From positions 310,001-374,000 of the forward strand of contig NW_020846737.1 of assembly GCF_003704095.1 (NCBI RefSeq): a DNA stretch of 64,000 nt, in the 5' to 3' direction. The stretch comes from Pocillopora damicornis (lineage: Eukaryota). The notes beneath the pieces are model-generated. The model was given only the letters and a program-made list of their open reading frames with translations, was not told where the DNA came from and ran no database searches. Positions within the stretch are counted from its first letter, which is position 1. Each line of letters opens with the position of its first letter. A program made the position numbers and the translations under genes. Positions 1-63,659 of this stretch are shown here, one piece after another.

Positions 1-249
1 TGCTGACATTCGCAAGGAGAAAGTGTTTGATTGAAGACAACACTGCAAATAGTTAGTTTCACGCTCCAGATCTGACAAACAGTTACGCGTCATCACGTAC
101 TTTGTAAAATAAAGTTTCTGAAAAAAAGGACAACTGGCATCATAAAAGCCATTGAATTGAGTAATCGCGAAAGAAAATTCTATACTCGACACTCCACCAA
201 CTTTTATATTCAACCCACGCAATTACGTGTTTGGAGTCGATTAAGGGAG

Positions 250-2050
250 GTTTCCAGATGGAATATGCGTCCGCTTGGACATCTCTGATCTTTCGTGCCT
301 AGAATTTGAACCGGATGGGCTCCCAGCTGGTATCAACGGAAAAATCGATCAATTTGAAAATTTAGGGCCACCGGTAAACACATTATAAACAATTTTATTC
401 ACCCATTTGGTTCAATAACCATCTCCTTCTGTGATAACAAACTGTCCAACCTACAACACTGTAAAATAGAAACAAGTGACAAAGCGTTCTTCATGGCAAA
501 ATAATCAATTTTAGAAGCAAATGGGAATAGAAAGCATGCAAGATTCTTTAAATCCAGGGATCTTGCGGAAAATTCATTGATTACTACACCGCTAATCGTT
601 TTCTCGGTAATGCCAATGTAACGTTTATCTCGTATATTCTCGCCTAAATATTAAAGCTGTGGGCTGTGTAATTTTAAAACGTCACAATGATGCAATGAAA
701 CAATTAGAGCTGAAAAATACTCTTTTAAAAAACATGTTTTTGTCGAGTCATAATTTCAATGCGTAACTTCACCTTCCATAAATCAAATGGAAAACATCTA
801 GGTGAAATTGAACCTCCTAAAATTAAGGATTATTTAAATTTGTCGTAAACAGGATACATTTTGTTGACTTATAACGACTCATCTTGAATCACGAATATTT
901 GTTTTGAGAATTTGCTGGATTTTCAGCTGTTGTTCGAGTTCATGATAGTAGACGCACCTATTGCAGTCTTGCAAAACCACATTAGAAACTTTGAATTAGT
1001 CAATAACTCATAATCTACATCCGGTAAAATTCCCTTCTAAACAATCTCTCCGTAGGCAAAAATGGGTGGGTACTGACTTTTTTTTAAGCAGAAACTATAA
1101 TAAATATGGAAAAGGTTGGTGATGTCAGGCTACAACTATTTATTTATTTCAATAGGGTGTGTTGGCGCTTTAAAGAGGTACATGGAGCTACTTTTCATGA
1201 CTCGGGAAATACTGATGTTTTCAAAGAAGATATCTGCCCAAGGAGATAACATTCTAGGTCATTAATAGGGCTGGACCACGACATAGCTACACGTGTCCAT
1301 GCACATACTGACAACCTGATGAAAGGTTTCATTAAAAGGACGGAGGAGGGTAATAATTAAACACAGAAGAAATTAATACACAATCTATCCGGACACCACT
1401 AGATTCCTTATTAGAGTTTTTTTTTTACATAAATGGATTTGGTTATAGAAACTGTTTTGATTGTGACACAAGATGTCAAGGGTTTATCAAGAGCACGGCA
1501 AGGTAAAAATATATCGATGTTCTATAGGATTCGAGACCAAGCTAAGAAATTTTGCATTTGTATGTTCCCCTGCCTGCGCCAAACGCTCGCTTGGAGGTAA
1601 ACTAGCGAAAAAGTGAGTGCGCGAAAGACTTCTTCAGCGCAGATAGAGTAAAAATGGATGGAGCTTAAATGGAGAGCCGGTTTTATTTCATAAAGATGTC
1701 ATGCCATTTTCCTTCTTATTCCTAATAGTAATAACCATGGGGAGATGGGATTTTCATTCTCCTCCCATAGGAAAAGCTCGCCGGGCCCCTTCTATTGCGG
1801 CTGTCATAAGCGATATGATTCAGGGATGACTGAAAGTTGAAATAAATCAACCAAAATAATTTATCCCAGTCGTGTTTTCTAGGAATAAAACAGTTGTTGT
1901 AAACTTGTCCCACTTTTAATCAAAGGATCTCCATATTTTATACCAAAAATTGTTTCTAAGAGACAAGAGACTAGTTTAAAACCTTTTAGCAGTATTGAAC
2001 CTAGGTCCGTTTAATGAAGCCGATTGTCTTAAACAGGAAATTTATTTTTT
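250..2050 (+). pseudogene. Possible decayed LRR-LRRCT-TM receptor gene
   Basis: FKSRDLAENSLITTPLIVFSVMPM* (547-621), GYILLTYNDSS*ITNICFENLLDFQLL (852-932), LRRCT-like YRNCFDCD (1444-1467) and CAKRSLGGKL (1575-1604), then a hydrophobic stretch at 1700-1763. Many stops and frameshifts; read by eye only. Confidence 0.35.
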
Positions 2051-11982: not shown

Positions 11983-12016
11983 CCTTTTCGACTTTGACAA
12001 AGCAGACGATTGCACA

Positions 12017-12034
12017 TCAGTCCGCATCCGCCAT
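12017..12034 (-). promoter_or_regulatory. Short upstream ORF (MADAD*) overlapping a YY1-type AAGATGGCGG motif in the ZDHHC4 leader
   Basis: Minus strand reads aacaaag ATG GCG GAT GCG GAC TGA, 52 nt upstream of and out of frame with the ZDHHC4 ATG. Whether it is transcribed is unknown. Confidence 0.5.
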
Positions 12035-12137
12035 CTTTGTTTACCGTTGGAAAATATTTGATGTATGGGTACATGTATGGTCCCGAAAACGACCACTGAC
12101 TATCCTGCGGGCTCAAAGATTATTGATTGTTTTTCAC

Positions 12138-12170: not shown

Positions 12171-12707
12171 AGGCAATCAGACATCTGTTGCATAGCGCGG
12201 ACAAAACAGTTTCAGACTGTTTATATCAGAGAGTTTTACGTTTGACTATCATTTTTGAAGACAAGGACTGTTAAGGTAAGTTCTTTCGCTTTGGTGTCCG
12301 CGATTTTTCCGAGAAATATTCGTTTCTTGGCGAATTACGTCCTCCAACAGAGTGCAATCAGATTGCATGATCTCCAATTTCCCCTATCGTGACGGAGATA
12401 TTGTACACGTTGCAAATTTTGTTTCAAGCAATTTTTTTGCTTTTCTGTTGCACTAGAATCGCATTTAAGCGAATATGAACATCGTTTCATTCCATTATTG
12501 GCTCTCTGTGTTCCTCACTAAGACTGCGGCTGATTTAAAACCACAGAACGGCTACGAAACTCAATTATCTCTTTGCCACAAGATTTCATCTCGTGCTCAA
12601 GGCAACTTGCCATCAAATATCAAAGAGAAGCCTTTTTTTCTTGTGGACACAAACCTTTTTCAACCAAATTATTAAAACATTCTTGTTTCCTTGTAGGATC
12701 AAACAAT

Positions 12708-24593: not shown

Positions 24594-27500
24594 TCAGCCA
24601 GTTTGCCCCTCAAGTATATCCCCCTTAGAAACAGGCACTTCTCCTTTTTCAACCCTTCCCCGTGTCTTCCCTGAGTTTTTGTATTTCTTCTCAGGGAAAA
24701 TCTCCCCATACAACTCTTCAGTTCGATCAATAAGTTTTTCAAGTCGGTTCTCCAGCTTTGAAACTGAATCTTCGTGCAGACCTGCGACATCTGAGGTTAG
24801 GTGGCTCTTGGTAAGCACGTTGACGGCTTTGACACGAGACGTAGCCGTCTCCCAAAGGACCTTGCCTCGACTCTGTGGTCTCCGAGTCTTTCCGATTCCC
24901 GACCATAGCTTAAAGCGCTCGATGATGAAGTCGACGATTTCATATTCGTTCGATTGCTTGTCATTGTCGTGCTTGACGACGATGAACGAGTCCACCACGA
25001 TGGAAAGGAACATGTTGATGAGCACAAACGACATCATGAACATAAAACCGAAGAAAAAAAGAGGACCGAGGACGCGATTGGTGTCACGCATCTCAAAGTA
25101 GGCAGTCCTTCCCAGCATAAGGCTTAACAGAGACGTCAGCGAGGCCATGATGCTGCGGTAGTTGTACAGAACGGGTCCGAACACTAACGACGCGAACATC
25201 GTGTAAGCGAGAAAGACGATGCCCCAGACAATGCTGAACATCAGCAATGGGTAGTACGCGTACTTAAGTGTGGAGGACAGGAGCGAGAACCGCTTGTTAA
25301 ACCGGAGGAGCTTGTTCAGTTTAATGTTTGCTAGGAGAACGATCATAGCCAGGACAAACGTGTACGTCTCGTTCCAATACCCTGCGAACTGAAAGCTCTT
25401 GAAGTTGAAAGGGTCGTGTCGCACTAAATCCAACACATTTCTAATGGTGAGCGTGCGGTAAACATACATCGCTATGGCAGCGAAGGTAAACAAACTGATC
25501 CCCATCTCCACACAGTTCCAAAACTCTTTCAGGTAAGCCTGGATTCCAAGTTTGTAAATATGTTTCACTTCACGATAAAAGAAAAACAACGTGAACAACA
25601 CAAACACGACCTCGATCGTTAATACAAAGAGCATGATGGTCTTGTTAAAGTCGTACAGGCGCGCAGTCTGGATGCTAACGTAGGGAATAGCCGCGCCAGT
25701 GGCGGGATATTCTGCCGCCAGAGTAACAATAGAAAACAGGTTACTCTGTGCATTGTATATTGTGAATTCAGTCAGCACAGCCCGTGTGCGCCGCTCGATC
25801 CACATATTTTTCTCAAGGACTCTGACACGTCTGAAGTTCTCCAACCCAGGTTCAAGAACAATTACGTACCTGTGGAAAGAAAATTTACACGAATGTATTA
25901 CACTAAAAAAAAACAATGGTGCAACAATATAGTCAAATTTGGAAGAAAGAGAAACTCGCCTTTGGTTTAACTCCAGACAATGACTGTGCGATTAAGAACG
26001 GAAAGCATTTTAACTAGTATGTCCATGAATGCACATGCAAGTCTTTAACCCGTTAGAAAACAAAATTGTGAAAAGCAGTTTTTATTCTCTTTGGGAGTAG
26101 ACGGGATCTTCTTTAGACATTATGTGGCTTTGAGCAGAAACAGAACTAAACAACTGTGTCCAGACAAGAAATCCACGAGAGTTCTTCTTTTCACTGTGGG
26201 AACACACATGGCTCAAAAAAGAGCTGATATTTTTCAAGTTCATCATATGATTTTACAGTATTTATCTTAACCATATTTAACCATTTAAATCTTAGAAGTG
26301 ATTTTCAAACATTAACTTCCAACCCTATTATATACGTAAATTACCCAGCACAAAGGTAATAAGAATACTCAAACTTATAAGGTACAATTTGTGATCTTAA
26401 TCCATAAAAATTCGTAAAATGTGTTGCTGCAAGCGGGGAGAATTAACGATCAGATCTCGGTGCTGAAAGGATTAAGTATCCTTTCCTTGACGTAAGTCTA
26501 CACTTGCAGATTATTTGTTTAAAAGTCCTTTTTTAAATTACAATTCTCGCGCCAAAATGAATCAAAATCTAAGCGTAAGTCTTGAAGAGTCTGCCTTAAT
26601 ATTTTTTTTTCAGCTAGGCAATACGAGCGCGTGCTTATCTCTCGCGATCGACATTTTACGATAGTTAGCTTTAGAACAACTTTGAACGTACCCTCCTCCA
26701 CTGTAAGTGGTCAGAGTGCCCAAGAAGGGGTACCCATCAAGCTGACTGCTGTTTTGATATCTCCACGGCATGTCATCCCAAGACACTGGAGTGTCGTATG
26801 TAGTGATGTTCTCCCATCCCTCTGTGTAATCATTCTTGTCGTTCTTGGTCACAAAATATTCTCCGTAGCATTCTTTTGTGATGCCATACAACTCGGTTGG
26901 AACCCGGCAGGATTCTGGGAATCAAATATGTTGTTATGAGTTCCATGGTCAGCATGGACTTAGTATAGGGGTGAGGTAGGGGAAGGGAAAGTCACTTGGC
27001 CTGTTGTGAGACGCTAAGGAAGGGCCTGTTAGCAAGTAAATCTTTGGTAACCGCGCTGGATTCCTGATCCCGAGGTCTGGGCCCCGACACTGGCCAGATT
27101 ATGGTAATATGTCATTGGCCAAGATAAGGTACCACCACAGTGCCTCTCTCTTTCGAGGAGAGATAACAAATACAAGCGAAATGCCACGGAAAGCTGACGA
27201 AATGCTTGGAGGCCTGACATGCATCCTGCAGGAGCGGTAATACCCGCAGACGATCCTTGCAACAGAAAAGCTGGATGAGCCTTGGTAAATGAAAAATTGC
27301 CGACATATAAAACAGACAAATAAACAAACAAGCAAACAAACCTCTTTTTACTCTGAGGAGTCTCATCCTTGCCCCGCCCACCATCTGACTGTAGCCATCC
27401 ACCATGAACCCATCGGGTTTTCGTTCTTCGCCGTTGTACCATTTCTTGGGGAACAAGCTCGTCAAGAGCTCACTTTGAGTCCAATTCCAAAACTCTTTTT

Positions 27501-30500
27501 CATTTGTTATCTGTGGATGTGAACAAGAATTCGAATGACGTTATTTAAAACATATACTAGTAGAACACGATAGCAGGAACATTCATAGATACAAAATGGC
27601 CTTCAAAAAAGGAATCTTTTAAAGTTAAAATACTCTGTGAAACTAGCGAGGTCTCTGGGTCACTCGGAGTCGAGGCCCACAAGCTAACAAAGAAAAAGGC
27701 TTCCTCTCTTCAACTGGCGATGACGAATCCGTGGTCGAAGAGAAAGTATTATCTTGTAAAATTTTAGCAGCCAGACTGCGATGCAAGGATAAAAGGCATA
27801 ACTCAATAGGGTGGATGTACGTATATATATATAACACCAGGGGAAAAGTCATTATTTATCGCTAAGGTCGGAAGATTTGGGAAGGAGGTTACGTGGTTTT
27901 CAGGGAGAATGCGGGAGAGGGGGGGGGTGCTTATCGTCGCTGACAGAGTATAAAAGTAGGACAGAATAAACTTGACTGCCAATTAGGGTGGATCATTAGA
28001 ATACTACAGAGTCTAGGGAGGGGGGGGATCAGGTGAATTTTATTGTGACACTACCAAGATCCTCTGACCCCTCGATGATAAATAACGACATTACATTATT
28101 CAGAGGTTTCATTTAGTACTCACTTTGGAAAAGTTATCTCCCATAATATCGAAAAGGTGTTTCGTCTGGAAGTAAGCTGATTTGTCTCTGTGCGTGTAAG
28201 CGATCGTTAGCAACAGGGCGAGAAATATGTAGTAAGTGGCGACCTCGCGAATGACAGAATACATCTTTCGTTCCTTCATTCTCGCTGCTCTCATAGCAAT
28301 CAGTCTTGCTTGGTCTGGAGGGAAAAGCTTCGCTTTCTTTGTCTTTGATCCTCCTGAGTTGAGGTCCGATTGTTGGCCGAGAAATTCTTCATCCTCGGCG
28401 AGTTTGAGCACCTCTTCAGTTACCTGAAATTCACCTTTGTCTGGCTTTTTAACGACCAGAGCAAAGAATACTGCCAAACCGAGCACCTGTGTCAACACAA
28501 AAATTAAAAAAGGGAGCACTTTATAAGTAAACTTCACAAGTAATACTGCATTACATCGGTTTTTTTCAAATCTTTACAACGCTCTGTGATAAAACCAGAA
28601 AAGTCACGCCACTCTCTCAACGAATCAGACACAAAACTAAAAACCAGTTTTCCCGCGCCTCAAGACAATTTTCTTTAACCTAATTTGAGTTCCTATCAAT
28701 GAGTTCCTTTTATGTTTGAAGATTTGTCTTATGGTGCCCAATCTGTCAAGGAAATGCTGCAGAAAACACTTTCCTCTAAGGAGAACACTGTAATTTAGCA
28801 TTCATAGTTCTCACTTTACTAGAAGGCAAGAGTAAGCGAGAACGAAAGTCGGAACAGATCGTAAGAATTGTGAGTTGAGAAACTGCCCGGAGGCAGCTAT
28901 ACCTGAGGAGGAAAGAGCAGCCTTTTTCTCCACGAAGAAATATACGTTATGATTATGATACCCTTATGTGCTTTTCCATCGACATTTACCTACCCCTCCT
29001 TTCACGTTGTGAATCCAATCTCAATCTCATTTTCTTCATGTTAAATTTCCAATTTCCTCCATAATTTAACCTACTGATATGGTACTACTCTTTCTTATTA
29101 GCCCCATACATATTTAATATCATCAGTTCTTCCCATTTCGTTCAGTAACTTGCTCGATGAGTGTTCTATCTTTTCATTGGGGCCTTCCTCTCACAACCAC
29201 AATGAACCAGCAAAGTCATTAATGGACGTACAATGCTATGCAGCATCTCCATAACGGACCAGTCNNNNNNNNNNTGTACCTGAGGGATGGGGGGGGAGGG
29301 GAGGACTTCTGGGGTGGATCACATGGTTTTCAGGGAGAACGATGGGGGATCAGTCGTCACCAGCAGAGTATAAAAGGGGGGACTGTGGAACATTTGACTG
29401 CCAGTTAACTGCCAATGGGGTGTATCATAAGAACATTTACAGACCTTGTAGGAAAATCAAGGCAAATGTTAATGTGACACAACCAAAATCATCCGACCCC
29501 TCCCCCCCCGGCATTAAATAAATTACCGGTACCTGAGAGAAAATGAACTAGGTGTCAAAGGCTTACCTTGAGGGGTTGAGTGATGAACACATCTTGAACA
29601 AAAGACACACAGGACGAAAATAACCACTGCAAGGACTTTTCGTTTTTAAACTCCATGCCGTAAAATACAATTACAGCGGCTGACCCAGCTGAGAAGATGA
29701 AGACGAAAAACCATGCCACGTACACGAAGTAAAAAGGCAACGTGTTTTTCTTCTTGAACCACAACAGCAAGCGGCGTGCACGGGACGTAGGAGCTAAAAA
29801 AAGAGGGAAATGTCATTGAGTATTCCCTCGATGCCTTTGAATTTACGCAGTGTCGGCGCCGGTTATAAAATGATTCACAACGGTGGCGAAAGATAGTGGA
29901 AGAAATCAATGAAATTATATAAGGAACAGATCACTTTTACACTCTGTTGGTGACGACTACTCTCCCCTTTGTTCCCCCTGAAAACTATACGACCCCCTTG
30001 CCTACCCCCCCCCCCCAAAGGAAAGAAAAGAAAATCCTCCAAGCCCCCAGGTGATAAATAATGACTACTCTCTAAAAAGTGAAAAAATAGGATAGATAGC
30101 AAGAAAAAAAGAAAAAAACCGGAGACGAATGGGACCGTTGTAATTCATGTAAGTGTTAGGCTCGCCGCCGTTTATGTGGATGTCACGTTATGCTCCCCCT
30201 TGGATGTCGTCGCATGACATCCCAGAATACAGGTGCGAAGGAGACTAGATAAAAATTCAGCCTTGTGACGAATGGTATCAATTTGTATAAGTATCCTGTA
30301 ATAGTAGTAGTTCACACTCAACAATAGAAATCACAGTTGTTTTCTTCTCTAAATTTTCTAAAAGCAGCGCGAAGCACTGTTGCAGTCAAGATTGCCTCAA
30401 CTCCTCTATAAATAAAAAAAAAAGAAAATTTTTAGTGAGACGCCAACGTGTTTCCTTACCGATGTCGTATGTGGTACTGAGCCTACGATCAATCAGCAGT

Positions 30501-33500
30501 GGGCTGTCGGTAAAACTTGTGCGGTCCACGTCAGTATGCACATCATTAATTGACAACCGAGTCTTGTTGTTCTTTTCTCGTGAGAAATCTAGACTGTTTC
30601 TCGATCCCTTAGCAGAGTCGTCCGACGATTCTTTCAGGTTATTGTAATTGTCCAGGCTGTCCTTATCAAAGGAAAGAGTCGGCAGACAAGGGGTGGGAGG
30701 TGGCTTTTTCGGCTTGACTTTTGGTTTAGGTCGGACATTGCGAAAGATCTGCACCACTATCAGGTTAATTGGGAAGACTATGAGACTCGAAACGATCCCG
30801 ACCAGCACCTGTACGGATTGAATTAAAAATTGGTTAACAAACGAGTCCTCATTTATTTTAATATTCTGCACGTATTGCGTACCTGTGGACAGTAAACAAT
30901 ACGTTACGATTTGAATGTGGAACTCACCTGATTCCAGGTGAAAACAATGGAGCCAATTTGCTGCGTGTTGGAGGGGTCGCCTCGTGGGCCGTAGTACATA
31001 CCACTGGTCATCATTGACATAAGTAGAAGACACAGACAACAGGACAACCGCTGTACTCGCGTGAATCGACTGCCGGCTGGACGGGCGAGGACTGAGAACC
31101 ACAGATGACTGTCGCTAAGGTTACGGCGCGTTCTGGCAACAAATAGATGACCAAACTCTGTAAGCTCCGCTTTACTGGCCAACATAACGAGACGTTCAAC
31201 CTAACCAGAGAATAAAAATAAAAATCTCTCAAATAAGATCCAAGACTAAAACCAAGTGGACTTGGTCACTCGCATTTCCATGCACCAGGCTACAGGCTGT
31301 TTGGTTCCTTGTAACTACATTGCTGAGGGACAATCAATCGGTATGCGCTTTAAATATGATCACAAACGGTATTCTTCAAATTGGTTTCTTCCTCCATCGT
31401 AAAATGTTTTAAGTTTCCCTGATATCAGATCAACTTCTTGGGGCGTTCAACAGCAAGGGGTTTGCGCAGGTTCTAGAGTTGCGGAGCGCTATGAGAAGCC
31501 GGATCCAGTGGAATTTAGAAGCATCCTAAATTGTCTCTCTCCTCAAGAAAGAGGGTGTCGTATGCACTTTACAACCTTACTTCATAGATACACCCCACCA
31601 CATCATACCTGGCCATCTTCCTCATCCACAGCCAGCCACCTGTTACAGATGAAGTAAAATCTCTCCTCTGTTTGTAGATCAATCACCATAATTCGACTCA
31701 GAAACCACGAGCCACCTGCGTTATCGTGCCACACCCGGATGTAATGAATGGAGCCTAAGTCAAAGGGCGTGGTCAGAAGAAACGAGTCCTGGCTACCACG
31801 TTGAAAAGGGTTTCTCTCAGGATCATGCAAAGCGCGCGCCTCACTGTCCTGTTCGTCACCGTACAGTATAATGCTGACTTTGGATTTAGTGCCAGCATTA
31901 CGGCGCATGCCCGTCCATAGAGTCACCTCGTAACGGTACGGGTCTGAGGGCTCATTATCCCGTAGTGGACAGACACCAACCTAAATGAAAAAAGGATACG
32001 TATATTCAATTTTTGGGGCTGAATTAAAAGGCAAGCTTTCTATGTTTTTGGTCGGCCCATTCTTTCCTTAATAAGCCTGGACCCAAGAAAAGTAGACCCT
32101 CACCATAAAACCAACCCGTCGATATGATTACGTCGATATGTCCTATTAAAACTGAACGTTTATGGCCTAGAAGAAGTTCGTATTTACAGGATTTCTCTGA
32201 ATACGTCTCTAATTGCCGAAGGAATAAATGGATAACTTTAGTTCCAAAACACGGGGTCTATCTAATCAATATAAAATTGAACATTCAGCAGAACGTGAAC
32301 CAAAAGAAATCATCATCATGCAAATTCACTTGGTCTTTATTCTCTCTTTCTGACCTTTTACGACCTTTCTTTCCAAATAAATCGCTGTTAACTAAAGCCA
32401 ACCCCCTTCCCACCCTACAAACTGTTGCATTCTTTAATCGCTTGTTTCCCCCCTGGAAAATATTCAAAGAAATTAACACTTACCCTAACGACGTCAGCTC
32501 TGTCTTTCCTTCTTGCCCAAATAAGGGCTAGGAAATACAGCGCAAAGATGATGCTGACAAACACCAGCATGGCATACCCATCTTTAAGTTTGGCGTATGA
32601 CAGAGGACCAATAGGGTTAGGTTTTACGTTCAGGGAACCAAAAAAAGTGGCGTGGTTACACAGGCAGTTTGTGGCAGCGATTGAAGTCGCCTCACCAACC
32701 TGACCAAAATAGGTCACAAATTATCACTTAACAGTACTTACGTTAGCTAAAAACGGAATCGACTGCACTAATCTTTGACTCGGGATAAAGAAAAATTTCT
32801 CGTGTTCTCCCCAACATCCAGTGCAAGTTTTTACGCCGAGAAAACGATCTGATAAAAAGTAGGATTTAGTGCTCAATTATATATGCTAAGCTGAATTACA
32901 CCTGCATTTTTACAACCTACGATCTATTAGAATGCAGATGCATAGATGACTTCACCATTATCAAAACTTAGCGTTTTTTTATCATGTAAAACAAATAGAT
33001 TCCATGTTACCGCGTGCCTGTTCAGTGACAGATCACAGATGACGTCAAAATGAACTTAGAACACCAGTGACAAACTTAGCTTCGCCTTGTTTGCCACTTT
33101 TTTGTTCTTGCCACATTTGGAAACCATGTGACTTTAACTGAAGTGAAGCACGCCAATATAGATTCTAATTGATTATCACAGTGCTCTCCGTTCACACTCT
33201 CTACTTAACATAGCTTCTCGAAGTACTCTATTCTTAAGAAGTAGAATATAATAATCTTTGATAAATTTGTCCTCACCTTGCATCCCTCATCAAGCCATTT
33301 CTTTTCCTCCATACCCCAATACATACATCGCACAGGATAAATGGCCACTGTGTAATTCACAACACGTGGTTTTTCCTCTGCAAGCAGCCCAGGTACCTTG
33401 ACAGTCAAGTTGAAATAGACAGGTCTTTGAGGTAGTCCCCAGGCCATGTAAGTAAAGTTGTCGACTTTCCGAAAAGTTGCAGAGACGTCCTCATCAGGGA

Positions 33501-36500
33501 ACGTGGGAGAGAATCGAAGCATGTACTTGCTAGACGTTCTTCCTTCAAAAGTGATATGAAGCAGGCCAGTTAAGGTTGTGTTGTCGTCCGATTTAACGTA
33601 AACTAGCAGTGGCGTGTACGGTTGACCGGGTGGAGACTGGAAACGATGACTTTTTTCCGTGTCGGCTGAGAACTGTTCGCTGAAGCGGCTAGACACGCTT
33701 TTCAAATCGGTGAGTATGTTGACTTTAAGATCATCGGTGAGATTTTGTATTTTGATCTCTCGCTTTCCTTGCTTTAGGGCGAAACCTTGTATCTTAGTAA
33801 TATACGGTGAGCTCGTTTCGTCGGATCGGAAAATGTTATCCATTGTGGTATACTGAAACGAAAGGAAACACTTCAATAATCTTTAAAAAAATAGGTTAAA
33901 GGAGAGGACCTTGTGAGCAACGTATCCATCCTCTTCACATTCAATACACCATTATGAAGTGTTATAAACATAGAGAAAAAGAGCTTGACAAGGGAAGGGG
34001 GTTATAGTGGGTAGTTGACACGACACCCTGCGTTTTCGTTCTCCTCAGATTGCCTCGCACAATCATCAAAGTTTTCGGCGCAACACGATCGAAGGTGAAG
34101 TCAAATTCATTTAAGTATATATAACTGTATAGAACCACCTTCCCATTCTAAAAGAAGCGAAACAGACCTTCGCAGTATCAGAGCGATTTTCTAACAAGTG
34201 ATTAGACTCAATACTCGAGAACGCGGTTTATTGTAAATGCCAAAATGGAGTGATTTATCACATACTCCTCCTCTCACGGCGAAAGCGACCAGTTTAATTT
34301 ACGATGAAAGAAGCTTGAAATAATCCTTTAAACTCCAGGAATTTTTATCTTAATTTTATATTTGGTCACTTTCTCAATTCTCATCATCTGTCTCCTTTTG
34401 TATAAACGTACCATGAAAGAGTAAAACAGACATTTATCGCTTAAATTTCACCTACCTCTAAGTCAACAGGGTCTTTGTCATTTGCATCTTTAAGGACGAC
34501 ATCGGGATTCGGAAGGCTAACTAGCAGCTGCNNNNNNNNNNNNNNNNNNNNNNNNNNNNNNNNNNNNNNNNNNNNNNNNNNNNNNNNNNNNNNNNNNNNN
34601 NNNNNNNNNNNNNNNNNNNNNNNNNNNNNNNACTGTGTTTACACTAACCCTCACCCAAACACACCTATCAAGCCATGAGAGAGCGCCTTTCTCAGTTAAA
34701 TGATACTCCTTGGTTAGTTTTATTCATGGATTTTTTTTCAGTTCTCATGAACCGGTCTGCCTCACGTAAAGCGAAAAAGCGTAAAAGGGTCAATCAATGA
34801 ACCGGATCAATATAAATATCTGATGAACTGCACACCTCCCCAAACAACACTCAACTGATAACAAGTTAGGGTTAAATTTAGTCAAGGGGAGAGGTAGGTG
34901 CGTAGATGCTCAGATACTAACATTGACCCAGTTACCTTATGGAAAGATACAAAGATCATATTAATGGTAGAGGGAATTTCTCTCGCACGCAGAGGTTTAA
35001 TAGCTGTTTTTTTCTTCTTCAGTTTTCTTTGGTTTTTGAGTACTTTTTTCAGTTATTATCACAAACGATATTCCTTACGCTGAGCAGTGTAATCAGCTGT
35101 AGTTTCTTTGCTGGCTTCTAACGTGTTTGAGGACGCCGTGTAAATCTCTCGTGCTATTTCTTCAACCTTCACTGCGCCCAGATTTTTGGCAGATTCCTTT
35201 AAGACAGAGGCTGCTCCTTTTGCAATTCCTGCTGCTTGGTTCTAATTAAAAAAAAAAAAAATGACAATAATACAACTGGTAAAATGTTGGGTCTGCATTT
35301 TCATCTTAGCATAGGCAAAAGCACGTAAATCCTTGTGAGGGTGAGCACATCACAATCATAAACACAAGCGCAACCAGGACAATATCGCAGTGAGAAGGGG
35401 GTCTTATAGCTATTTCTCTGGTATTGCATTGCCTTCTCACTGACGAAACGAAATGGTCTATTATCCAAGACCCAGTAAAGGGAATGAAATGGTGGTTTTC
35501 TTATTTCTTTAACCGAAAGAAGAACAAACGGCATAGATATTCTTATCTTTCAATCTTTCAGTTCTTCCTCTTGAGCGTTATAACTTTAAAAGCAAAATAT
35601 GCAATAGCAATATATTGTGCGCATGAGTGGGTTGATAAAGTAAACGAACGCACATATGAGTGAATAAATCAAAGAATGATTGAGAGAATGACTGAAAGAA
35701 TGAATTAAAAAGTGGATGAACGATTGAATGATTGAATAAATAAACGAATTAGTTTATTTATTAGACTGGTGCTAGACGATTGTACTTACTTGAGTATTTG
35801 ACGTCACTTCCGTTTTGTCTTTGGTGACTTTTATCAAAGCACCAATGGTCTGTTGAGCCAGTGATGTATCCGTTATGTCGACTTCCGAAAGTTTAGTGAC
35901 CAGCTTCGATTTTTCCTGAAAGGAAGGAACAACTGAATATTCAAGGCATCACTGTGGAAACTGCAGTCGTTTCACATGACTATGTTTTCATGTATTCACA
36001 GTCATTTCTTCATTACATCACGGGTTTATTACGAACCTAAAGAAATAGCTCCCAGTTGGCTTGTTAGCTTAGTTGGTAGAGCGTTACACCGATATCGCAG
36101 AGGTCGTGGGTTCAAATCCCGTACAGGCCTGAAATTTTTTTCAAGCCTCATTTTCACCACTGCCCAAGTAGTGTCCATTACTGCGAAGTACTCATACACG
36201 ATTTTAATATATTCACAGTCATTTCTGATTGGCTGTTGTGATAACTTTGGTATTGGGAAAAAAACTAAATTGAGATACCCTCATAACGCGTTAAATACCT
36301 TAGTTTGCTGTCCTTTATTTGTAGTTTCCGACTTGTTGCCTTGATCTATGATGGATATCAGAGAGTTCACCACCTGGACGACCTTTTTGGGGTCTTTCTT
36401 GGCATCCACTTCCTCCAGTTGTTGAATAGCTTTATCTATTTGCCCCGTCTCCGGTTTTTTCACCTACAAGAAAAATCAGTTCAACTAGAAAGTTTTTAGG

Positions 36501-39500
36501 CGATTTAATTTGCATGTTCGCGAGGTCATAGGTTCACTCCTATTGAAGATCTACTTTTCAGGCTTGATTTGAAGTGCAAATCAACCCATAATTCAAGAAC
36601 TTGTGACTAAAACAGACTTTTTGTTCCTCCTCTGACAATTCTACGGGATCTACGTTTTTACATTTCACGTCATTTTTTGGGATATTCAAACCACTTTCAA
36701 CCTGAAAGAGATTACGAATAATCGATATCGCCGCTGGGGCACCAAAATAGGGAAACAGATAGTGATAAACTGGAAAAGAACGAGGATGGAAAATTATGGA
36801 GAATATGAGGTGCAAATGGCGAACTTCAAAAAATCAGTCTGAGGTTAAGAAAACCCCAAAACCGTGACGTGGTGCCTAAAGGATATACTGATCCACGGGC
36901 ACGCTTCATTGTAGTCTTTGAGTAGCCCTTAAATGTTATCACTAAAGATTTTAATTTGAATTTCAACTCACCGTGGCGTTTAGTGGAAAAGTGGCACAAC
37001 ATTGATACTTGTTGCAAATACGTGCAGATAGCTGGAGTTGGAAACCATTCTTTGGATCTCCGATAGGTAACACTCTCGATGGAGTAGATCTCTCCCCAAA
37101 GTACCAAACCTGATTTGCCTGTGACTCCGACGATAATGAATTAATCTGAGCTAAGTTGTCTATCTTGGTTTTGTAACGAAACTCGTACGAGATTGGGTTG
37201 TCTATGGTTACCCAGTTTTTACAGTTGATCTTGAACGGGGTTTCCGCCGCAAAACCCTCTTGTGGACTGAAGTGAAAATTTCAAATACACACGTTAATTC
37301 TACTTTTTTTCCCCGAAGTTTTCTAAACACATCCTTTACAACCCTTGTGCATTCTGCCCTCGTATTAAAAGCAATCTCTTGATCTAATCTGAGAAAATGG
37401 CATAATATTGGAATAATGATAATAAAGCAGTAGAAGTGGCAGCGGCGGCGATTACGACCACTATAACGACGACGATAGCTTTAATGATGACAATAACTAT
37501 AATCATTACGATAAACAAAACGATACTGACTACGAAAATGGAAACATTAAAGACAAAGACGACGACAGTAACGATAACGATAAGGATAAGGATAACGACA
37601 ACGACAACGATAACCGCAAAGACAACGACGGCAATAACGACTACGACGAAGACNNNNNNNNNNNNNNNNNNNNNNNNNNNNNNNNNNNNNNNNNNNNNNN
37701 NNNNNNNNNNNNNNNNNNNNNNNNNNNNNNNNNNNNNNNNNNNNNNNNNNNNNCCTGCTATACTCTCCCACCGACGCAGCACCATAGTTTCTTTAGAAAC
37801 TTACCCCCTTAATACGATGTTCTATTAGAACCTCGCCAGATGATACACAGTCATTTCTCTTGAGTTACAAGTGCGCGCTATTCGCCATCAATCCCTCGAG
37901 CTCTTTGGTGTCTCAAAATGCTTTCATTTCCTTGGGTAGCAGATTCATCATCGCGACTGAGAAATACAGGGTTAAATCCCCCTCTTACATGCGGGCGATT
38001 TTCGTACGATCTTAGCGCCAGTATTAACGGGATTTTAGGCGCGATTTCAAATGGCACAAAAAAAGTCGTGAGCGATTTCGAATTTCAGTTCCACGACTAA
38101 ATAATTACAAATATAGCGAAAAACAGTACAACATCACAATATTTCTGCAATGCTTCTGAATTCATTTTCCCAAAATGTTTCGCCAGTCCAAGTTTAATAT
38201 TGACCATGAAAATGACTTGCTATTATACAAAACAGCAAGCTTCTTCAATCGTCACGGAAAGGATTCGAACTTGATTTCGCTGAGGCAGAGATATTAGGAT
38301 CGAATTCAACTGGAAAGAACCAACTAACCTTATTTCCAGTTGTGGGATATTGGGCTCCAGCATCACTATTTGTTGTGCAGAGGATGAACGTGAACTTGCT
38401 TTCTCGGTTACGTTCACCTGGAAAGTGTATTTCACATTCGTCCGAAACTTGTTTGTACGTAATTTTATGGTTTCGTTACTTTCTTGGTCAATTATGTCCA
38501 CGAACTCTGTTGAATTGCAAAGTTCATCTGGAACTGCTGGTGAAGAGTTATTCTCGACTTTACACTGCCATTTGAAATTTAACTTAATATCTTTATCATC
38601 CGGGTCGAAAGACTGAGAGGCATTCAATGTCAGCTGAGTTAAATTCGAATCTACTTGTCGAAAGCTGCCGCCGGATAGATATGCTACAAGCGGTGAGCTC
38701 ACCACCCGAATGAATGTTTTGAACGGATATTTTTCACCATTGTAGCTTACGTTCAATGTGATAGTATAGTCTCCAGTGTCTAGGCTTCTGGCTTCAAACA
38801 CGAAAGATTCTTTCTTCTTTTCAGCCTCAGAAATGGCTTGTGATGGAGTAATGTCCCATGAATAAACAGGCTCACCCTTCGGACATTCCTTCTTCGTTTC
38901 CACATTAACTTTTAAAAAGTTGATGGTAGTGCCTCGGGTAACAATTTGTGGATCTTTTTCTGTATACTTGTTGAGAAAATTTATGGCTGGTGCACAGGAG
39001 TTGGCTATGACATGCACAAATTTACTCTGAGAATATCCACTTGCTTTTATGGAGATGTTAAAGTCAGTCGGGGTGTCGTATTTGTGGGACCATTTTGTGT
39101 AACCCTTCTCGGTACGAACAGATTCAGAAGCCGACTCGCCATATGTAAATGTGTAGTTCACCTCTTGCTCATTTGATACGGAGACCTCAATTTCAAAAAG
39201 TTGTCCGGTAGAAACATGAAGAACTTTGTCGGCATTTGCTGGCGGGTCCAGCCGTATTGAGATGTCTCCAACAACCTTCAGTGAGAACTTTAAAAGCGCT
39301 GCGGAAGACGATATGTTGTTCCGGGCTTCGATTGAAATTTCGTATTCTCGATCTCTGGTATAACTGAAGGAGAAAAAGTGGAACAATGAAAAGTAGTAGT
39401 CAGTAACTGCAAAAGTCTGCAGATAGAGGGCAAGATCATCCACGCAACAAAAATATTGTGCGTCTATTTTATTTTGCACTTGCTAAGATTTATTACCAAA

Positions 39501-42500
39501 TATGTACGTAAATTTATTATAAATACAAGAATCTTAACCCATAGTTTGTACACGAGATTGCTTGAAGATCAATTCCAAGCCGTCTAAACTCAAGTGTTTG
39601 ACATTTTTCCTGCAAACAAAAGTGAGTTTGGCCTTCTAACCCTTTTACGTGAGAAATTCTCCAGTTGGGTTTCCCTCCCTTTACGTGTGCTGATCATGAG
39701 AAGACGGCTTACATTTCAGACATGCTAGTGCGCTGATTCAAAAATTAGAATTTCCGCCACTATTTGCACAGCAAACTACGGCTTGACTTATTCCAAAGGT
39801 TGCCTTTTCCTGCGTTCCATAATTTTTCGAAATTCCAGTCTTTTCCTCAAGTTTACCTCATTTGGGACAAAAAATCAGACTTTGCTGCCAGACGCTTGGA
39901 ATGGGATCCAAGTCACTTACTCGTGATTGGTCAAAATCCTTCTTTTCAAACAAAACATATTTTAGAAAGTCTACGAAAAAGCTTTTCGGGATTTTTGAGT
40001 ACTGAATAATGGCAGTGATGGCTCAAAACAATTTTCAATCCTTCCAGTATCGACAACGCGCGTAAGAGTCCATCCAGCACCTTACTCACAACGAGCTGGC
40101 TTCCTTCAGTTTTAGATGATTAACAGAAACTACCTGCAACGTTACCTTCCAAGTTTGGACTTACTTGTGCGTAATGTTCACAACAGTATTCAGGGCAGAA
40201 GTATAAAACTTTTCATAATTAGAGCCGTCTTCAAATTTTACAGTCAAAGTGACGTTTGTTCCATTCAGGACCACAGAAAAGTTGAATTGTGCGCCAACGT
40301 CAATCTTGGTCGGCGGTTTCTCCCTCCAAGCTACTGACGCTGGTTCGAGTATCCTAACTACTGAAGAAGCGTGTGCAGAACTGATTGCATTGTGGACGTA
40401 GAGCAAGACTGGGTAAAAACCTGCAAAGTAGAAATAGCATGAAAATCAGTGACTGGGTAAAGTAGATTTTACAGAAATTCTCCATTATTGCAGAAAGGAC
40501 TGAGTCTGTACTGTAAAAGTCACATTGTCAATCATCTGGGTGGGTTCCTGTAAATGAATGAAGGGGTAAGTTTCAAAGGAAACTGTGGTGCTGCGTTGGT
40601 GCGGGAGGAGGGGGGGGAGGAATTACGAGGTAATTTAGTTTGATAAACTGAGTTGATAATGTAAATTGGCCTCCGTAAAGAAGTCGAATGCATTTGTAGC
40701 CTTACCAGTATTGTTGTAAAGTACTTTAGGGTTTTTTACGTCGTACGTTGCCCCGTCTGTGGTCCACGTATAGTTTATGTCACTTCCTTTGTCCACAGCG
40801 CTCGTCAGAATAATTTGTTCTCCTTTGGGATAACTTATGTTCGTCAAGGGCTCTACAATGCGGAGACTTTCGATGCGCTCCTAGAAAAGCATCATAACTA
40901 TCTGTTAAAACCTTTTATCAACATTTCAACGTCCAATGAGATTTAGAAGACGTAGAATTAACGGCGCAAAATTCCTAGGTGACAGACTTCCGCTCGCGAC
41001 TAGTGGCGTGACGCCCCATGTGCGATAAAAGAGAAACTCCCCCAACTCCTGATGCCGCGCGTGAGACCCTTGCTGAAAATTCAGTGCCTTAAGCCTTTTC
41101 CGAGGTTATTGTGAGTTTTGACCCTTCAGTTAAAATCAGTAGTCACTGCAATCATGTCAATCATTAACATATAACACAGCACCTGCACGGTAATTTTGCA
41201 ACTCCTCAGTTCACTTTCAGCCACATTTCCCACAGAAACCGACACATTGTAAACTCCTGCTTGGGTATATTCCACAACAACCGCTGCTTGTGAGGGCTGA
41301 GAAACATGAGCCCGCAGAACATGTTTGATTTCGTGCCGAGTGGCGCTACCTTTTGTCAAATCGCTTCCTACTGCAAAACTGGACGATGAACTAGAAAAAT
41401 AGAACGATGGGTCATTAATAGTTTTCTCAAAGGCCAGCGTCCCAGAAGAACCGTTTCCAACCCATCCTATGACGTCACCAGCTTTCACTTCGATGGCTTT
41501 CTGGGAAGCAAGAGGGAAAAGATTGTTGCCGAGTTTTGTGATGTTCACCACAGTTTCTGCAATTGAGAAAAAGAAAGAACAAACGAAAACGCTCGTCAGA
41601 TTTTGTTTGTCCTCTTGGTTGGTCAGTATTATACGAAAGACGTTGCACTTTAATACTGTTTAATCTATAGGTAAAAGGTATAAATAGGGTATTAAAAAAC
41701 TCCTCTTTCATATTATTCACGTAATGTCCAATATTTATTTAACCCGTCACGCTCAATCCTGAATCCCTACGCCATTTTTTACTGTCACGCAAAGCTCGAA
41801 GCAAGCGCTTTAATTCAGTCACCCAAGGTAACACACTCAAAAGTCTACCTGCTACGACGACGTAGTCGGTCACAGGAGACGAAATGGCCAGAAATGATTT
41901 GTTCGGTCCTTGACAAGTAGACAAACAGTGACCAGTTCCTACGCAGATGCTCTTGTTCCCAGGACAACTGAATAGACTGGAGTCGACACAGGAGTCTGCC
42001 TTGGGTATACAGGAATAATTTCTCGGGCAGAAATAGCTGTCGAGCGAGGAACAGTTGGGACGGTAAACCTAAAAACAAGTGTCACATTAGAAAAATAATT
42101 GTTTAAAAGCTACGGAATGTATTCAGAGTCTGATAAGTCGCGCAACTCGCACAAGTCGCTTTCGAGGACTACAAATTTCAACATGTTATGCCCCCAGGAG
42201 TCGAAACGCAAGCAAATAATACTCTCTGAGAGGGCTTTATTAAGTATTCCTCCCTATCCCGTCTTCCCCTTAGCTTGCGACAAGGCCGTTTCGCCTATCA
42301 CTCTAAAGGGGCAAAGTCTCATCTGGTTTATCCTGAAAAGTATTGACAAATTCTTTCAGATTTGACGTCTACAATCCGTTTTCATCTTTTCCATCTTGAA
42401 CCATTCTGATTTCTCTTTGGTTTTATAACTGCTTCTTTGGCGTTTTCCTTGCCCATAAGACGGCAATTTTAAATTCTCCATTCTAAGAAAAATAAGTGGC

Positions 42501-45500
42501 GAATTTTTAATCTCAGTGGTCAGCGGTTTTCGAATGTATTACACTGTGCAGTGTAAGAACCACTGACCTGTAACTGAATGGATCCAAGTTTAGAGGCGAA
42601 GAATTCCCAGGCTAGTACAAAACCGTCTTTCTTCAGCATAGCAGATGGGATTACGTATGCGCCGTCCGTTTCGGGGGAGTTGCTGGAATTTCCAAACGTT
42701 GCAGACGAACCTATGTCGTGGATTATGGGGTCTGAGGTAAAAGAAAATATCCTATTCAATGATGAATAAACAAGAAATAACCAAGAGCCCCTGTCTAAAG
42801 GATCACTGCACAATGGCCTAATATACTAACCACAAGGGTAGGGGTGTTTGGCCTCATACCTTGTAGACTGACGAAAGCCCCCCTTACCCTCCCCTCGCGC
42901 GATGGCCTAACATACTAACCACAAGGGTTGGGGTAGGGGTAGGGGTAGGGGTAGGGGTAAGGGGAGGTTGGCAATTTTCCTATTCTCCACAAACTCCTGA
43001 AACGAAAATCTGCGCCATTAACGGCCTCATACCTTGTAAGCTGACATTAACCCCCTCACCCTCCCCCTGCGCGATGGCCTAACATACTAACCACAAGGGT
43101 AGGGGTAGGGGGGAGGTTGGCAATTTTTCTATTCGCCTCAAGCTCCTGAAACGAAAATCTGCGACATTAGCGGCCTCATACCTTGTAAATTGACTCTAGC
43201 CCCCTCACCTCTCCCCCCCGACAAACAACACGTCCTCTCACTCACCCGATACGTTAAATGACTTTCTATTCCTCCCATCTTTCTGGTGTGTTGTATGCAC
43301 TAGAGCTGTCATCCACGTGCCTTGGCTGACACTCAAGACAATCTCAGTCTCGTTTCCCACCTCAAGAATCTCTTTGGGGTAGTCTAAAGTTAGTTTACCC
43401 GTTGGATTTTGAATTAACACCCACGTGGACGCCAGTATCGGGCCTGACTCGTTTGACCTCGCAGACGCCTTCACGTGGAACTCACCCACGCGCGTGTACA
43501 CGTGTGTGGCATTAGGACACGTGGTCAACACGTAGGAGCCGTCACCAAAATCGAAAGTGTAGGACAGATTGTTGAGATCACCTAAAATTACGTACAAAAA
43601 AAACTTTCAATCTAAAACCTGGAAACTTTCAAGGAACGTGTATAGACTACGTTACTTTTGAGAAGGAAAGATCACGAGTGGGTATACTTAGAAACTATAT
43701 CGAATCCGGTATGCTTGTAATGTTACAGTATTCGAAAAGAACGCTGTAACTAAGTGTGATACAACCCCACAAGAAATTTGTAAATCATGTTCTTTGCATC
43801 TGTTATTTAATTTCGCCACAGATCACTATCTCTTCCCAGGTAGTAGAGGGGAAGTTCGTGTCAACCCTAAACAAAAGTTACAAAAAGGAGCAGCAAAAGT
43901 AACTACATTCGAACCTGTATAGAGCGGCACCGTATTAAGCGGTCTGTTTTCAAAGTCCCGAAATTGTGACGACTTAATAACTGTAATTTTTACCTTTATT
44001 TAGCGGTCACCTCTAGAAAGCGGTTTGTATTGTCCTCCAGCTGTTTTAAACGGTCACGTAAAGCGAACCACTCATAAAACTAGGAATAATCTTTCAAGTA
44101 AAGATTAATCCATTTTTATCTCCCGAAATCTTAGCAATATTTTGAGCGAGTTTTTGGATACTAAGTGGTCCATTAAGGCGTAAAGTGGCGATTTTTATCG
44201 GTTTTAAAATACCCCTATTCTGTAGAAGCTGTATTAAGCGGTCTCACCCCGCCATTCCTCGTGGGTGACTTCCTAATACAGGTTTGACTGTATCGACAGC
44301 TATGTTAAATGAAATCAGTGAGATTGAAAACCTGCGATAAAGTGAGAGAGAGCTCGTTCTTTTCCATTACCTTTTCCAAGAACGGTCGAAAAACTGACTT
44401 CACGAAACATCCATCCAACCTTTGGACCGTGAAGTTTGAGTTCACCAATTGCGCCTTGGGTTGAATACACTCGCACGTATGACGTACTATCGCATGATTG
44501 GGCTGAACATGTGACGTCACACTGGCTGTCATTAGTGGCTTTGCCATACACGTCATAATTACCGTTGCTACAAAAACACAGGTTCCCTTCAGTGGCCGCA
44601 TATGACTGCTTTAAAAATGCGCAAGAGGAGGTACACTCTTGAGCGGAAGTGTCCGACACGATGTAGTTTCCGGCCGAAATGTTGATTGCGCGGTTTGCAA
44701 TATTTTCTTTGTAACATCCCAAGTACCAACCTAAAACGATGAAAAAGATATCATTAACTCTTTCACTCCCAAGATCTAATTGTTAATTCTCTCCACTAGC
44801 TGCCAAACATTTCTTTGTACATTAGTTACAAGAATTTGGTGTTAGATAAAGATAGCTTCAATCTGATAAGTTTGATTATTCTCATTACGAGTTTGCTGGA
44901 TAATGTATGGATTTTATGGGGAGAAGTTACATGTTAATCACTACTGATTATGGGAGTTAAAAGGGTTAACTGGGAAATACAGAAGCCAGTGAAAGCTCAA
45001 ATTCAAGACAATCAGCTGTTTAAATCGCAGAAAAACACCTGGGTCCTAGTTGGGTTGTGTTTTTATTTGATTGGTTGAGAGGGTGCCACGTGTTCCTTAG
45101 GCCACACGAAAAAAGACAAGGCCGATGCAAAAACCGAACCGAACGCTTTTCTCGCACATTCAGTCAAATGTCACTGTTCTAAGAGAGCTGTCAGGTGTTG
45201 AAATGGGCTATGGAACAGTGTTTCTTCGTCTATAGACACTTATCACACTCGAATCGACAAAGCAGCAGCTGAAACTGTTATTACGACCAACGAGGATTCA
45301 TTCTGACGGAGGCTGTTTTCGAGTCATGAATAAAGTTTCGTTATTAGTTATATTTTCCATCTCTTATTTGTCTTCTAACAGGTGGTGGTTTTATTTTTCA
45401 GGCAGATATCACGAATTTTAGTTGTAATTGTGCCCCATCCTAAATAGCTTCAAATTGCTTTCAGCCAATTTCAGCCAATAGTAGCTTCCAATTGCTTTTT

Positions 45501-63579: not shown

Positions 63580-63659
63580 CTGATATTGGGGATTTGAAAA
63601 TCAAAAAATTAGAGAGAAAAGTGTTGTCTAAAGATAAATGTATCACCTTTTTTTTCAGC

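Follow-up and report, generated by a model that had tools for sequence, protein, structure and literature searches.

A polycystin-1-like gene of the coral Pocillopora damicornis encodes an ectodomain unit that, judged from profile comparisons, is a widely conserved and unnamed module of polycystin-1 (PKD1)-type receptors. Polycystin-1 is the receptor of polycystic kidney disease. A predicted structure makes it very probable that this unit is nested and not serial: two distant halves form one PKD/Ig domain, which carries a jelly-roll, which in turn carries a Cys-rich insert in one of its loops. The coral unit is likely homologous to the region of vertebrate PKD1 that is annotated as LDL-A. Our literature searches found no description of the nested unit; structure and domain databases may already show the fold.

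Host gene and nested layers

The gene lies in a 64,000-nucleotide stretch of contig NW_020846737.1 (the window). All motifs named in an earlier note on this DNA are found on the minus strand, at the positions it gave. Exons 44730-44371, 43581-43246, 42731-42568, 42068-41849, 41556-41183, 40880-40706, 40420-40165 and 39363 onward have GT-AG ends and yield a single open frame when spliced; the exon structure was worked out down to 38329. RNA contigs in 4/4 runs, from four studies, span every one of the six joints between 44371 and 40165, and the joint to 39363 is exact in three of the four RNA runs. A signal-peptide exon was looked for upstream of the gene and none was identified. The segments are as follows.

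44371..44730, minus strand: WSC domain (Pfam WSC, E 7.6e-08) and the beginning of the intact first PKD domain; RNA contigs of 4/4 runs cross the joint with the following exon
43403..43581, minus strand: remainder of the first, intact PKD domain (Pfam PKD, E 2.1e-10)
43246..43402, minus strand: outer layer, first half (aa ~180-231), predicted from the orthologue model as the N-terminal strands of the split PKD/Ig domain, with a phase-1 intron at its end
42568..42731, minus strand: middle layer, first part, jelly-roll strands up to ...LQ (aa 232-286); phase-0 intron, RNA contigs, matched by the profile of free jelly-rolls (probability 99.3)
42057..42068, minus strand: VYRP, strand end with the family's most conserved Arg, aligned to sheep PKD1 Arg611
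41871..42056, minus strand: inner layer, Cys-rich insert (aa 291-352), with 8 Cys in aa 291-338; a loop of 4-16 residues in free jelly-rolls
41849..41870, minus strand: jelly-roll restart, TDYVVVA (alignment and profile match to the free family)
41303..41556, minus strand: middle layer, second part, jelly-roll with GDVIGW up to HVLRAHV (aa 360-444; orthologue model compared with the Cwp84 lectin-like domain)
41183..41302, minus strand: outer layer, the split PKD/Ig domain's second half (aa 445-484, with the final 3 residues on the following exon; match to positions 45-80 of Pfam PKD, E 0.007, and model)
24597..40880, minus strand: remaining host gene, where Pfam (PKD, REJ, Polycystin_dom, PKD_channel) identifies more PKD repeats, REJ, the polycystin domain and the cation-channel domain

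In the spliced translation, LTLDYP is located at aa 183, DGFVLAW at 267, VYRP at 287, GDVIGW at 386 and EYTQAG at 455. The 48-residue stretch with 8 Cys (aa 291-338) follows VYRP within exon 41849-42068, as the earlier note had placed it, and these exons are RNA-supported. Its figure of ~220 aa between the PKD halves was also fair; the distance is ~215-250 aa, set by the end that is chosen for the first half.

PKD repeats followed by REJ, identified by Pfam on the window exons, make the product a polycystin-1-like receptor, and it also has a polycystin domain (Polycystin_dom, E 2.3e-16) with a six-transmembrane channel (PKD_channel, E 1.2e-47). An orthologue from Oculina (P0002; 2825 aa, 57% identical to the window gene over the 975 aa compared) has GPS (PF01825) and PLAT (PF01477) domains listed. 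No C-type lectin is present in this region of the coral protein, in agreement with the earlier note. The PKD array is short in the window gene and long in paralogues on C4289, C1038, C1436 and C666; an intron matching that at the end of the first PKD half occurs in the C4289 and C1038 paralogues.

Nesting was assessed with an AlphaFold model of the Oculina unit, which is 66% identical to that of the window, using a 50-row alignment. The model (pLDDT 89.2, pTM 0.85; 87.5-89.2 across five models) has three nested layers: a two-ended PKD/Ig domain, a jelly-roll of the Cwp84-lectin-like/PHR class, and a Cys cluster in a jelly-roll loop. Residues 1-54 and 271-310 pair into one PKD/Ig domain, and the whole model (1..310) aligns to single PKD/Ig domains over just ~90 residues (4xed: Z 10.9, rmsd 2.0, 90/97 residues; SorCS2 PKD 1wgo: Z 10.5). 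Superposed on 4xed, the outer layer of this predicted orthologue model is a seven-stranded beta-sandwich of ~80-90 residues. Residues 55..270 match the Cwp84 lectin-like domain (Z 11.3, rmsd 2.8, 138 residues). The model and these fold comparisons bear out the nested arrangement proposed earlier. The coral copy also gives domain boundaries for potentially foldable constructs, in which the halves could not be cut as serial domains.

Pfam sees little of this unit. Its sole PKD signal in the split domain of the window is the second half in exon 41556-41183 (profile 45-80), and the exons carrying the Cys cluster or the first part of the beta unit have no match. The WDFGDG-type core motif is absent from the split PKD domain of the window protein; some homologues have degenerate forms such as DMGDG, DFDDG and DFGNG. 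The split domain would still function as a PKD domain. Foldseek returned no match at E<=0.001 for either the Oculina-unit model or a model of a bacterial free copy.

The complement C3 CUB/TED domains are an example of domain insertion into an Ig-like scaffold, where a beta-sandwich of two distant halves likewise bears a side-branch domain. The coral unit differs in having three layers, with four elements in vertebrates, and no conformational switch is known for it.

The jelly-roll family and its Cys insert

Without nesting, the jelly-roll occurs as a free domain, bacteria included. The pattern W..F..LQ(V/I)(Y/W)RP..GD.IG, which the earlier note linked to unannotated invertebrate secreted proteins, indeed marks a family of unannotated proteins, and its view of the beta unit as an uncharacterised domain also held: no Pfam or NCBIfam entry in the copies scanned covers the jelly-roll. 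The unit thus defines a domain family missing from these collections. Free and nested profiles match with probability 99.3, with the alignment gap falling exactly at the Cys insert, where free jelly-rolls have a short loop in 26/26 cases. Among the best 150 library matches, 36 have an uninterrupted copy and 74 match the Cys-insert profile. The Arg of the VYRP strand is present in all 26 free copies and in 25 of the 44 nested rows that have a residue there.

An uninterrupted bacterial jelly-roll modelled alone had the same fold class (pLDDT 87.3). The closest solved domain, Cwp84's lectin-like domain (PDB 4ci7; Pfam Lectin_like PF18560), shares a beta-sandwich with both models (Z 11.3-11.5, rmsd 2.8-3.0, 138-142 residues; for the bacterial copy Z 11.5, rmsd 3.0, 142 residues), but identity is 9-10%, Pfam Lectin_like does not match, and the available passages on Cwp84 describe no Cys insert. 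Those passages call the role of this lectin-like domain unclear, with the usual sugar site absent. For the bacterial model, the top structural neighbours are surface or phage-tail domains; at lower ranks (Z 6-7) many are discoidin domains, F-lectins or carbohydrate-binding modules, and the fold is also that of the PHR domains in ubiquitin ligases (3no8 and 3gbw, Z 7.2-7.9). The middle layer belongs to the Lectin_like/PHR fold class (Cwp84 Z 11.5; PHR Z 7.9), with no solved DUF4082 entry among the rows compared. At the sequence level, 0/26 free copies match Lectin_like, PHR or DUF4082 at E<=1; none of 50 nested rows match Lectin_like or PHR, and one matches DUF4082 (E 0.021). A match of the Atlas model to Lectin_like clusters gave TM 0.63-0.64. 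Atlas feature matches to DUF4082, PHR and Lectin_like (0.80-0.86) are leads only.

Sequence queries of the PDB (the exon, P0001, the first profile) produced chance matches only; a pterin-synthase match (E 0.009) was rejected since it rests on spaced cysteines. The matches listed for P0003 were C-terminal polycystin-1 constructs, channels, and WSC, PKD and PLAT relatives, so that among them no solved ectodomain segment was available for comparison.

The window insert, probably a disulfide-bonded knob, reads as two 4-Cys repeats. Among 40 complete inserts the number of Cys varies from 2 to 10, and length varies as well. The spacing C-x-[FYW]C-x5-C-x3-7-C, present in 35/50 rows, is similar to that of the first four Cys of LDL-A, which is likewise a short Cys-rich module. 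LDL-A has an acidic calcium-cage motif, DCxDxSDE, and the disulfide pattern I-III, II-V, IV-VI. In contrast, the repeat of the insert has four Cys, not six, and lacks the cage: SDE occurs in 1/50 and DCxD in 2/50 invertebrate rows, and SDE in 0/6 vertebrate inserts. Pfam Ldl_recept_a matches 0/50 unit members at E<=0.1. The fold lists of the unit models contain no LDL-A or EGF structure, which says nothing on the fold of the Cys knob because larger domains fill these lists. The earlier remark that LDL-A is not seen in the coral protein is therefore correct for Pfam, but misleading, because Ldl_recept_a also misses vertebrate PKD1 (0/3 scanned) and the vertebrate Cys segment after the lectin appears to be the homologue of the insert.

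Vertebrate PKD1

The P. damicornis genome has the nested unit in 4 further paralogues. Elsewhere it occurs in proteins that are polycystin-1-like or unnamed, from hemichordates, echinoderms, amphioxus, molluscs, a brachiopod, a nemertean and a spider. Profile comparison also detects it in fish and mammal PKD1. The earlier note had regarded the unit as a lineage-specific ligand-binding head. A reading on these lines, in which the head of the coral gene is unrelated to vertebrate modules, would fit the absence of a covering Pfam family; its distribution refutes the lineage-specific part, and we consider the reading highly improbable.

Published descriptions of the vertebrate PKD1 ectodomain are serial: LRR, WSC, PKD, C-type lectin, LDL-A, PKD array and REJ (PMC2775119, PMC10487028). 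Other reports state that the N-terminal region has no complete experimental structure (PMC13755561) and that the presence of LDL-A is "still a debate" (bioRxiv 10.1101/2024.03.21.586139). Like the coral protein, vertebrate PKD1 has WSC, one intact PKD domain, a Cys segment ahead of the PKD array, REJ and channel domains; the coral protein differs in lacking LRR and, in this region, a C-type lectin, and in its far shorter PKD array. Since it lacks the lectin, the coral copy lays open a simpler form of the polycystin-1 ectodomain.

Profiles for the vertebrate comparison were built without vertebrate sequences; the vertebrate alignment, of 5 mammals and 1 fish, has little depth (Neff about 2). 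Against the whole 4303-column alignment, the invertebrate-only profile picks sheep aa 538-829, the post-lectin region, with probability 96.3 and E 1.9e-09 over 257 columns. With the PKD halves and the Cys segment removed, only the two flanks of the Cys segment match among 19 vertebrate windows (E 5e-05 and 1.2e-04; next 0.065), and the joined flanks score 51.7, compared with 10.5 +/- 2.0 (maximum 15.8) for 40 column shuffles. The top of 75 vertebrate windows for the Cys profile is aa 644-664. For the first-half-PKD profile, the top of 100 windows is aa 357-388, directly before the lectin, an assignment that is weak in vertebrates, with other PKD N-halves near (E 3.3e-05 vs 1.3e-04; probability 21). 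Sheep aa 352-400 and aa 535-823 predicted as a complex, with the alignment not used, scored 0.21 (mark 0.34), a result that counts neither for nor against.

The vertebrate match might instead be partly coincidental, the invertebrate unit being real and LDL-A an independent, degenerate LDL-receptor repeat, with the first PKD half not completed across the C-type lectin. Single-sequence scores are weak in mammals (1.7-14 bits; fish 24.9), the first half is poorly discriminated, and the spacing of the 4 Cys is like that in the first half of an LDL-A repeat. However, each of four independent sub-profiles is best matched at the expected place and in the expected order, the whole-protein match has E 1.9e-09, fish PKD1 keeps 10 Cys straight after its YRP motif, as invertebrates do, SDE is absent from all 6 vertebrate inserts, and Ldl_recept_a matches 0/3 vertebrate PKD1 scanned. 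We hold coincidence to be improbable.

Under homology, the vertebrate C-type lectin appears to have been inserted into the same split PKD repeat, so that lectin and LDL-A segment would both be insertions in a single split PKD domain, the LDL-A segment being surrounded by an unannotated jelly-roll. By the profile evidence, the lectin would occupy the insertion's N-terminal junction, and mammals would show decay of one Cys repeat, leaving a remnant annotated as "LDL-A". One mammal has just 2 Cys left in the insert, and this speaks against the knob being essential in mammals. The "divergent" PKD repeat, given a start at human aa 743 in PMC10487028, would correspond to the last jelly-roll strand plus the half domain. 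Sheep Arg611 aligns with the most conserved Arg of the family, and R611W of human PKD1 is classed as likely pathogenic (PMC4190876, in its Table 2). The nested layout likely explains both the long-disputed "LDL-A" segment and this neighbouring disease variant, and it offers a structural context in which missense variants can be read, R611W among them. On balance we suspect that the serial map of human polycystin-1 is wrong at ~355-~820, where one split PKD domain would bear the C-type lectin as well as a jelly-roll, an undescribed ligand-binding domain common to bacteria and many eukaryotes, with the so-called LDL-A inserted in it; ADPKD missense variants "outside known domains" in this stretch, of which R611W is an example, would break this domain.

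Putative role

It is somewhat probable that the split PKD/Ig domain with its jelly-roll and Cys knob forms a ligand-presenting side branch near the receptor tip; for a binding role of the unit as such we see an even chance, and a shared fold by itself shows no function. In the model, the PKD halves are predicted to refold around the insertion, which would keep the rod of Ig-like repeats continuous. The jelly-roll would then project from the side of the rod next to the WSC domain, not in series, because its entry and exit strands neighbour each other. As the most variable part of the unit, the Cys knob would be the likeliest specificity surface. Its putative partner would be extracellular, a glycan or a matrix or cell-surface protein, and the PKD-REJ stalk may pass the binding on to the polycystin channel complex, as polycystin biology suggests.

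Alternatively, the architecture is as described and the jelly-roll and knob are structural, serving folding or trafficking or acting as an elbow that places the WSC and lectin domains, with no outside ligand. Free copies have a nearly invariant Arg..Asp pair and C-terminal Arg (23, 24 and 24 of 26), which, with alignments judged by eye, are not visibly kept in the polycystin copies, so any ligand site of the free domain may be lost there. The conserved positions of the nested family are Cys, Gly and Pro, and Cwp84's lectin-like domain packs onto its own protease domain with no ligand shown. Against a purely structural role, which we hold to be rather unlikely, the unit is retained in five coral paralogues and across phyla while the knob varies in length and Cys count, an elaboration beyond what a spacer would require. 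Secreted-looking proteins also contain free copies in tandem, and PEP-CTERM surface proteins carry free copies too, a pattern that would be typical of binding modules. For the ligand-presenting side branch, the small free members from bacteria and hemichordates are suited to ligand-binding tests.

The nested unit and its host gene

The unit is a real, conserved module of three layers within a known receptor family, of a known fold and unnamed as a family: a split PKD/Ig domain is predicted to enclose a jelly-roll, which in turn would carry a Cys-rich knob. Its host gene is multi-exon, lies on the minus strand and encodes WSC, PKD, REJ, polycystin and channel domains (Pfam, window exons). The closest named proteins belong to two stony corals, Oculina and Desmophyllum, and sequencing runs with this DNA bear mostly coral or marine labels; the gene is a coral polycystin-1-like receptor. 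Pfam also recognized three neighbouring genes.

Neighbouring genes in the window
7887-12099, minus strand, DHHC palmitoyltransferase gene
12534-13155, plus strand, meiosis-expressed gene, MEIG1-like
54298-63600, minus strand, class 3 lipase gene, probably a diacylglycerol lipase

Eight spliced exons (44730 to 38329) form a single open frame, with 975 codons translated, and six joints (44371-40165) are spanned by RNA contigs in all four runs, from four studies. In three of the four runs, the contigs carry 9 in-frame bases more than the window at position 39270, probably an allele or species difference. In the intron following the first PKD half, a G-rich repeat recurs several times in imperfect form (42800-43215). 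Motifs quoted in the earlier note are all present in the spliced translation, at aa 183, 267, 287, 291-338 (8 Cys), 386 and 455. Within the split domain Pfam scored the second PKD half alone, and the beta unit and Cys stretch of the window protein had no Pfam match.

We aligned 50 homologous units or part-units and predicted a structure from the first row, the Oculina orthologue (66% identity to the window unit, 309 residues). The model is confident (pLDDT 89.2, pTM 0.85) and was compared with 48,161 solved chains. Most top matches placed about 90 residues from both model ends (range 1..310) on one PKD or Ig domain, including 4xed (Z 10.9, rmsd 2.0, 90/97 residues) and the SorCS2 PKD domain (Z 10.5), and the middle (55..270) matched the Cwp84 lectin-like domain (Z 11.3, rmsd 2.8, 138 residues); further structural comparison agreed. 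Together, these matches argue for a PKD domain split in halves, two distant segments being predicted to complete one domain, with a single jelly-roll, broken by the Cys stretch, between them. The model thus bears out the earlier proposal that an uncharacterised domain with an 8-Cys insert sits inside a PKD repeat.

The eight Cys of the insert encoded in the window can be read as two repeats, C-x-[FYW]C-x5-C-x3-7-C, a pattern strictly kept in 35 of the 50 aligned rows. SDE is part of the acidic calcium-cage motif of LDL-receptor class A repeats; this cage is absent from the insert (SDE in 1/50 rows), which never matched Pfam Ldl_recept_a. Judged by its sequence, the insert falls outside that family. 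An annelid protein (P0010, Dimorphilus, 3417 aa) contains a long tandem array of 4-Cys units like the insert's repeat.

The jelly-roll as a mobile domain

The jelly-roll of the middle layer is mobile. A profile searched against 1.84 billion representatives yielded 273 matches at E<=0.001; among the best 150 of these, 36 had at least one uninterrupted (free) copy (66 copies), 74 matched the Cys-insert profile and five had both. Hemichordate proteins have free copies in tandem, and hemichordate polycystins have them at the N-terminus; Entotheonella, deltaproteobacterial and PEP-CTERM proteins also carry free copies. Free and nested profiles matched with a probability of 99.3, and the sole gap fell exactly at the Cys insert. 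The loop at this site is 4-16 residues long with 0-1 Cys in all 26 free copies; in the 40 complete nested copies it spans 39-114 residues, mostly with 6 Cys (19) or 8 Cys (16). A lone free copy was modelled (pLDDT 87.3) and is predicted to share the fold class of the nested jelly-roll.

Structural matches of the free-copy model
Cwp84, Z 11.5
Cyanophage capsid protein, Z 10.4
Esterase N-domain, Z 10.3
Phage tail tip, Z 10.2
PHR, Z 7.9
F-lectin, Z 7.0

No Pfam or NCBIfam family covers the free jelly-roll, and Lectin_like, PHR and DUF4082 matched 0/26 free copies. Three hemichordate polycystin-1-like proteins (P0003, P0004, P0005) have two uninterrupted jelly-rolls (aa ~35-360) N-terminal to WSC, and therefore the domain is present three times per receptor.

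Distribution and the vertebrate polycystin-1 map

The unit also occurs in four other polycystin-like genes of the same coral genome; two of these paralogues (contigs C4289 and C1038), read base by base, share two intron positions with the window gene, one following the first PKD half and the other following LQ. The unit is also present in named proteins of hemichordates, crinoids, sea urchin, starfish, amphioxus, scallop, oyster, snails, brachiopod, nemertean and spider. This spread over paralogues and many phyla refutes the earlier view of a lineage-specific head. Unnamed Logan, ENA and JGI records (P0055, P0091, P0097) show WSC-PKD-nested unit, and their sources could include non-animal eukaryotes. 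Two coral paralogue loci, L014 (G000:C1436) and L015 (G000:C666), show additional lectin-type exons ahead of WSC that may belong to the same transcripts: both have a LamG-like exon, L014 has F5/8 type C and L015 has a C-type lectin.

For vertebrates, a conserved membrane-region query found eight PKD1 records (seven mammal, one toothfish), of which six were aligned for profile tests and two further hippopotamus isoforms omitted. An invertebrate-only profile scored 24.9 bits against the toothfish (aa 415-616; E 6e-10 for a single sequence) and just 1.7-14 bits against the mammals (about aa 567-802); with the whole 4303-column vertebrate alignment, the best match was sheep aa 538-829 (probability 96.3, E 1.9e-09, 257 columns). 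A profile without the PKD halves and Cys, run on 19 windows, scored on the two flanks of the Cys segment alone (E 5e-05 and 1.2e-04; the next best window 0.065). The free-domain profile also picked out both flanks (E 9.5e-04 and 0.011), and the joined flanks scored 51.7 versus 10.5 +/- 2.0 in 40 shuffles. The top of 75 windows for the Cys profile was aa 644-664 (E 0.0024), the Cys segment labelled LDL-A after the lectin. The first-half PKD profile placed aa 357-388, directly before the C-type lectin (aa ~403-531), top of 100 windows, other PKD N-halves scoring close. The placing of these sub-profile matches suggests the order half PKD, lectin, jelly-roll part 1, Cys knob, jelly-roll part 2, half PKD, and by homology the two halves would pair. 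The vertebrate insert has 10 Cys in the fish, 4-5 in four mammal records and 2 in one mammal.

Sheep LQVYR occupies aa 607-611, and this numbering probably applies to human PKD1 because of equal length and a matching Arg; Table 2 of PMC4190876 classes human p.Arg611Trp as likely pathogenic. Reviews name the Cys segment after the lectin LDL-A (PMC2775119). In the openly accessible full-text literature searched, only a serial map (LRR-WSC-PKD-lectin-LDL-A-PKD array) appears; one paper describes a 'divergent' additional PKD repeat from aa 743 (PMC10487028), and one preprint calls the LDL-A 'still a debate' (bioRxiv 10.1101/2024.03.21.586139). The human AlphaFold model may already contain the fold, uncommented. 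The unit matters less for the coral itself than for the revised vertebrate polycystin-1 map that it implies.

Possible role of the projecting layers

The Ig rod would stay continuous through the split PKD domain, and the jelly-roll and Cys knob would project sideways, near the WSC domain. There they may offer a putative binding surface for a glycan or extracellular protein, and binding could be relayed along the stalk to the channel complex. A binding surface is proposed because the fold class includes many surface and carbohydrate-binding modules, because free copies stand in tandem or are attached to cell-surface anchors, and because the knob is the variable part. The main rival is that jelly-roll and knob are purely structural. 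Counting against a binding surface are a Cwp84 lectin-like domain without a demonstrated ligand in the accessible part of its literature, a fold common to PHR domains, Arg/Asp/Arg residues that are kept in free copies but not visibly retained in polycystins, and a knob almost gone in one mammal. Three bacterial PEP-CTERM-type surface proteins (P0125, P0128, P0144), in which NCBIfam families matched only the anchor, each consist of a single free jelly-roll and are good test proteins for this domain.
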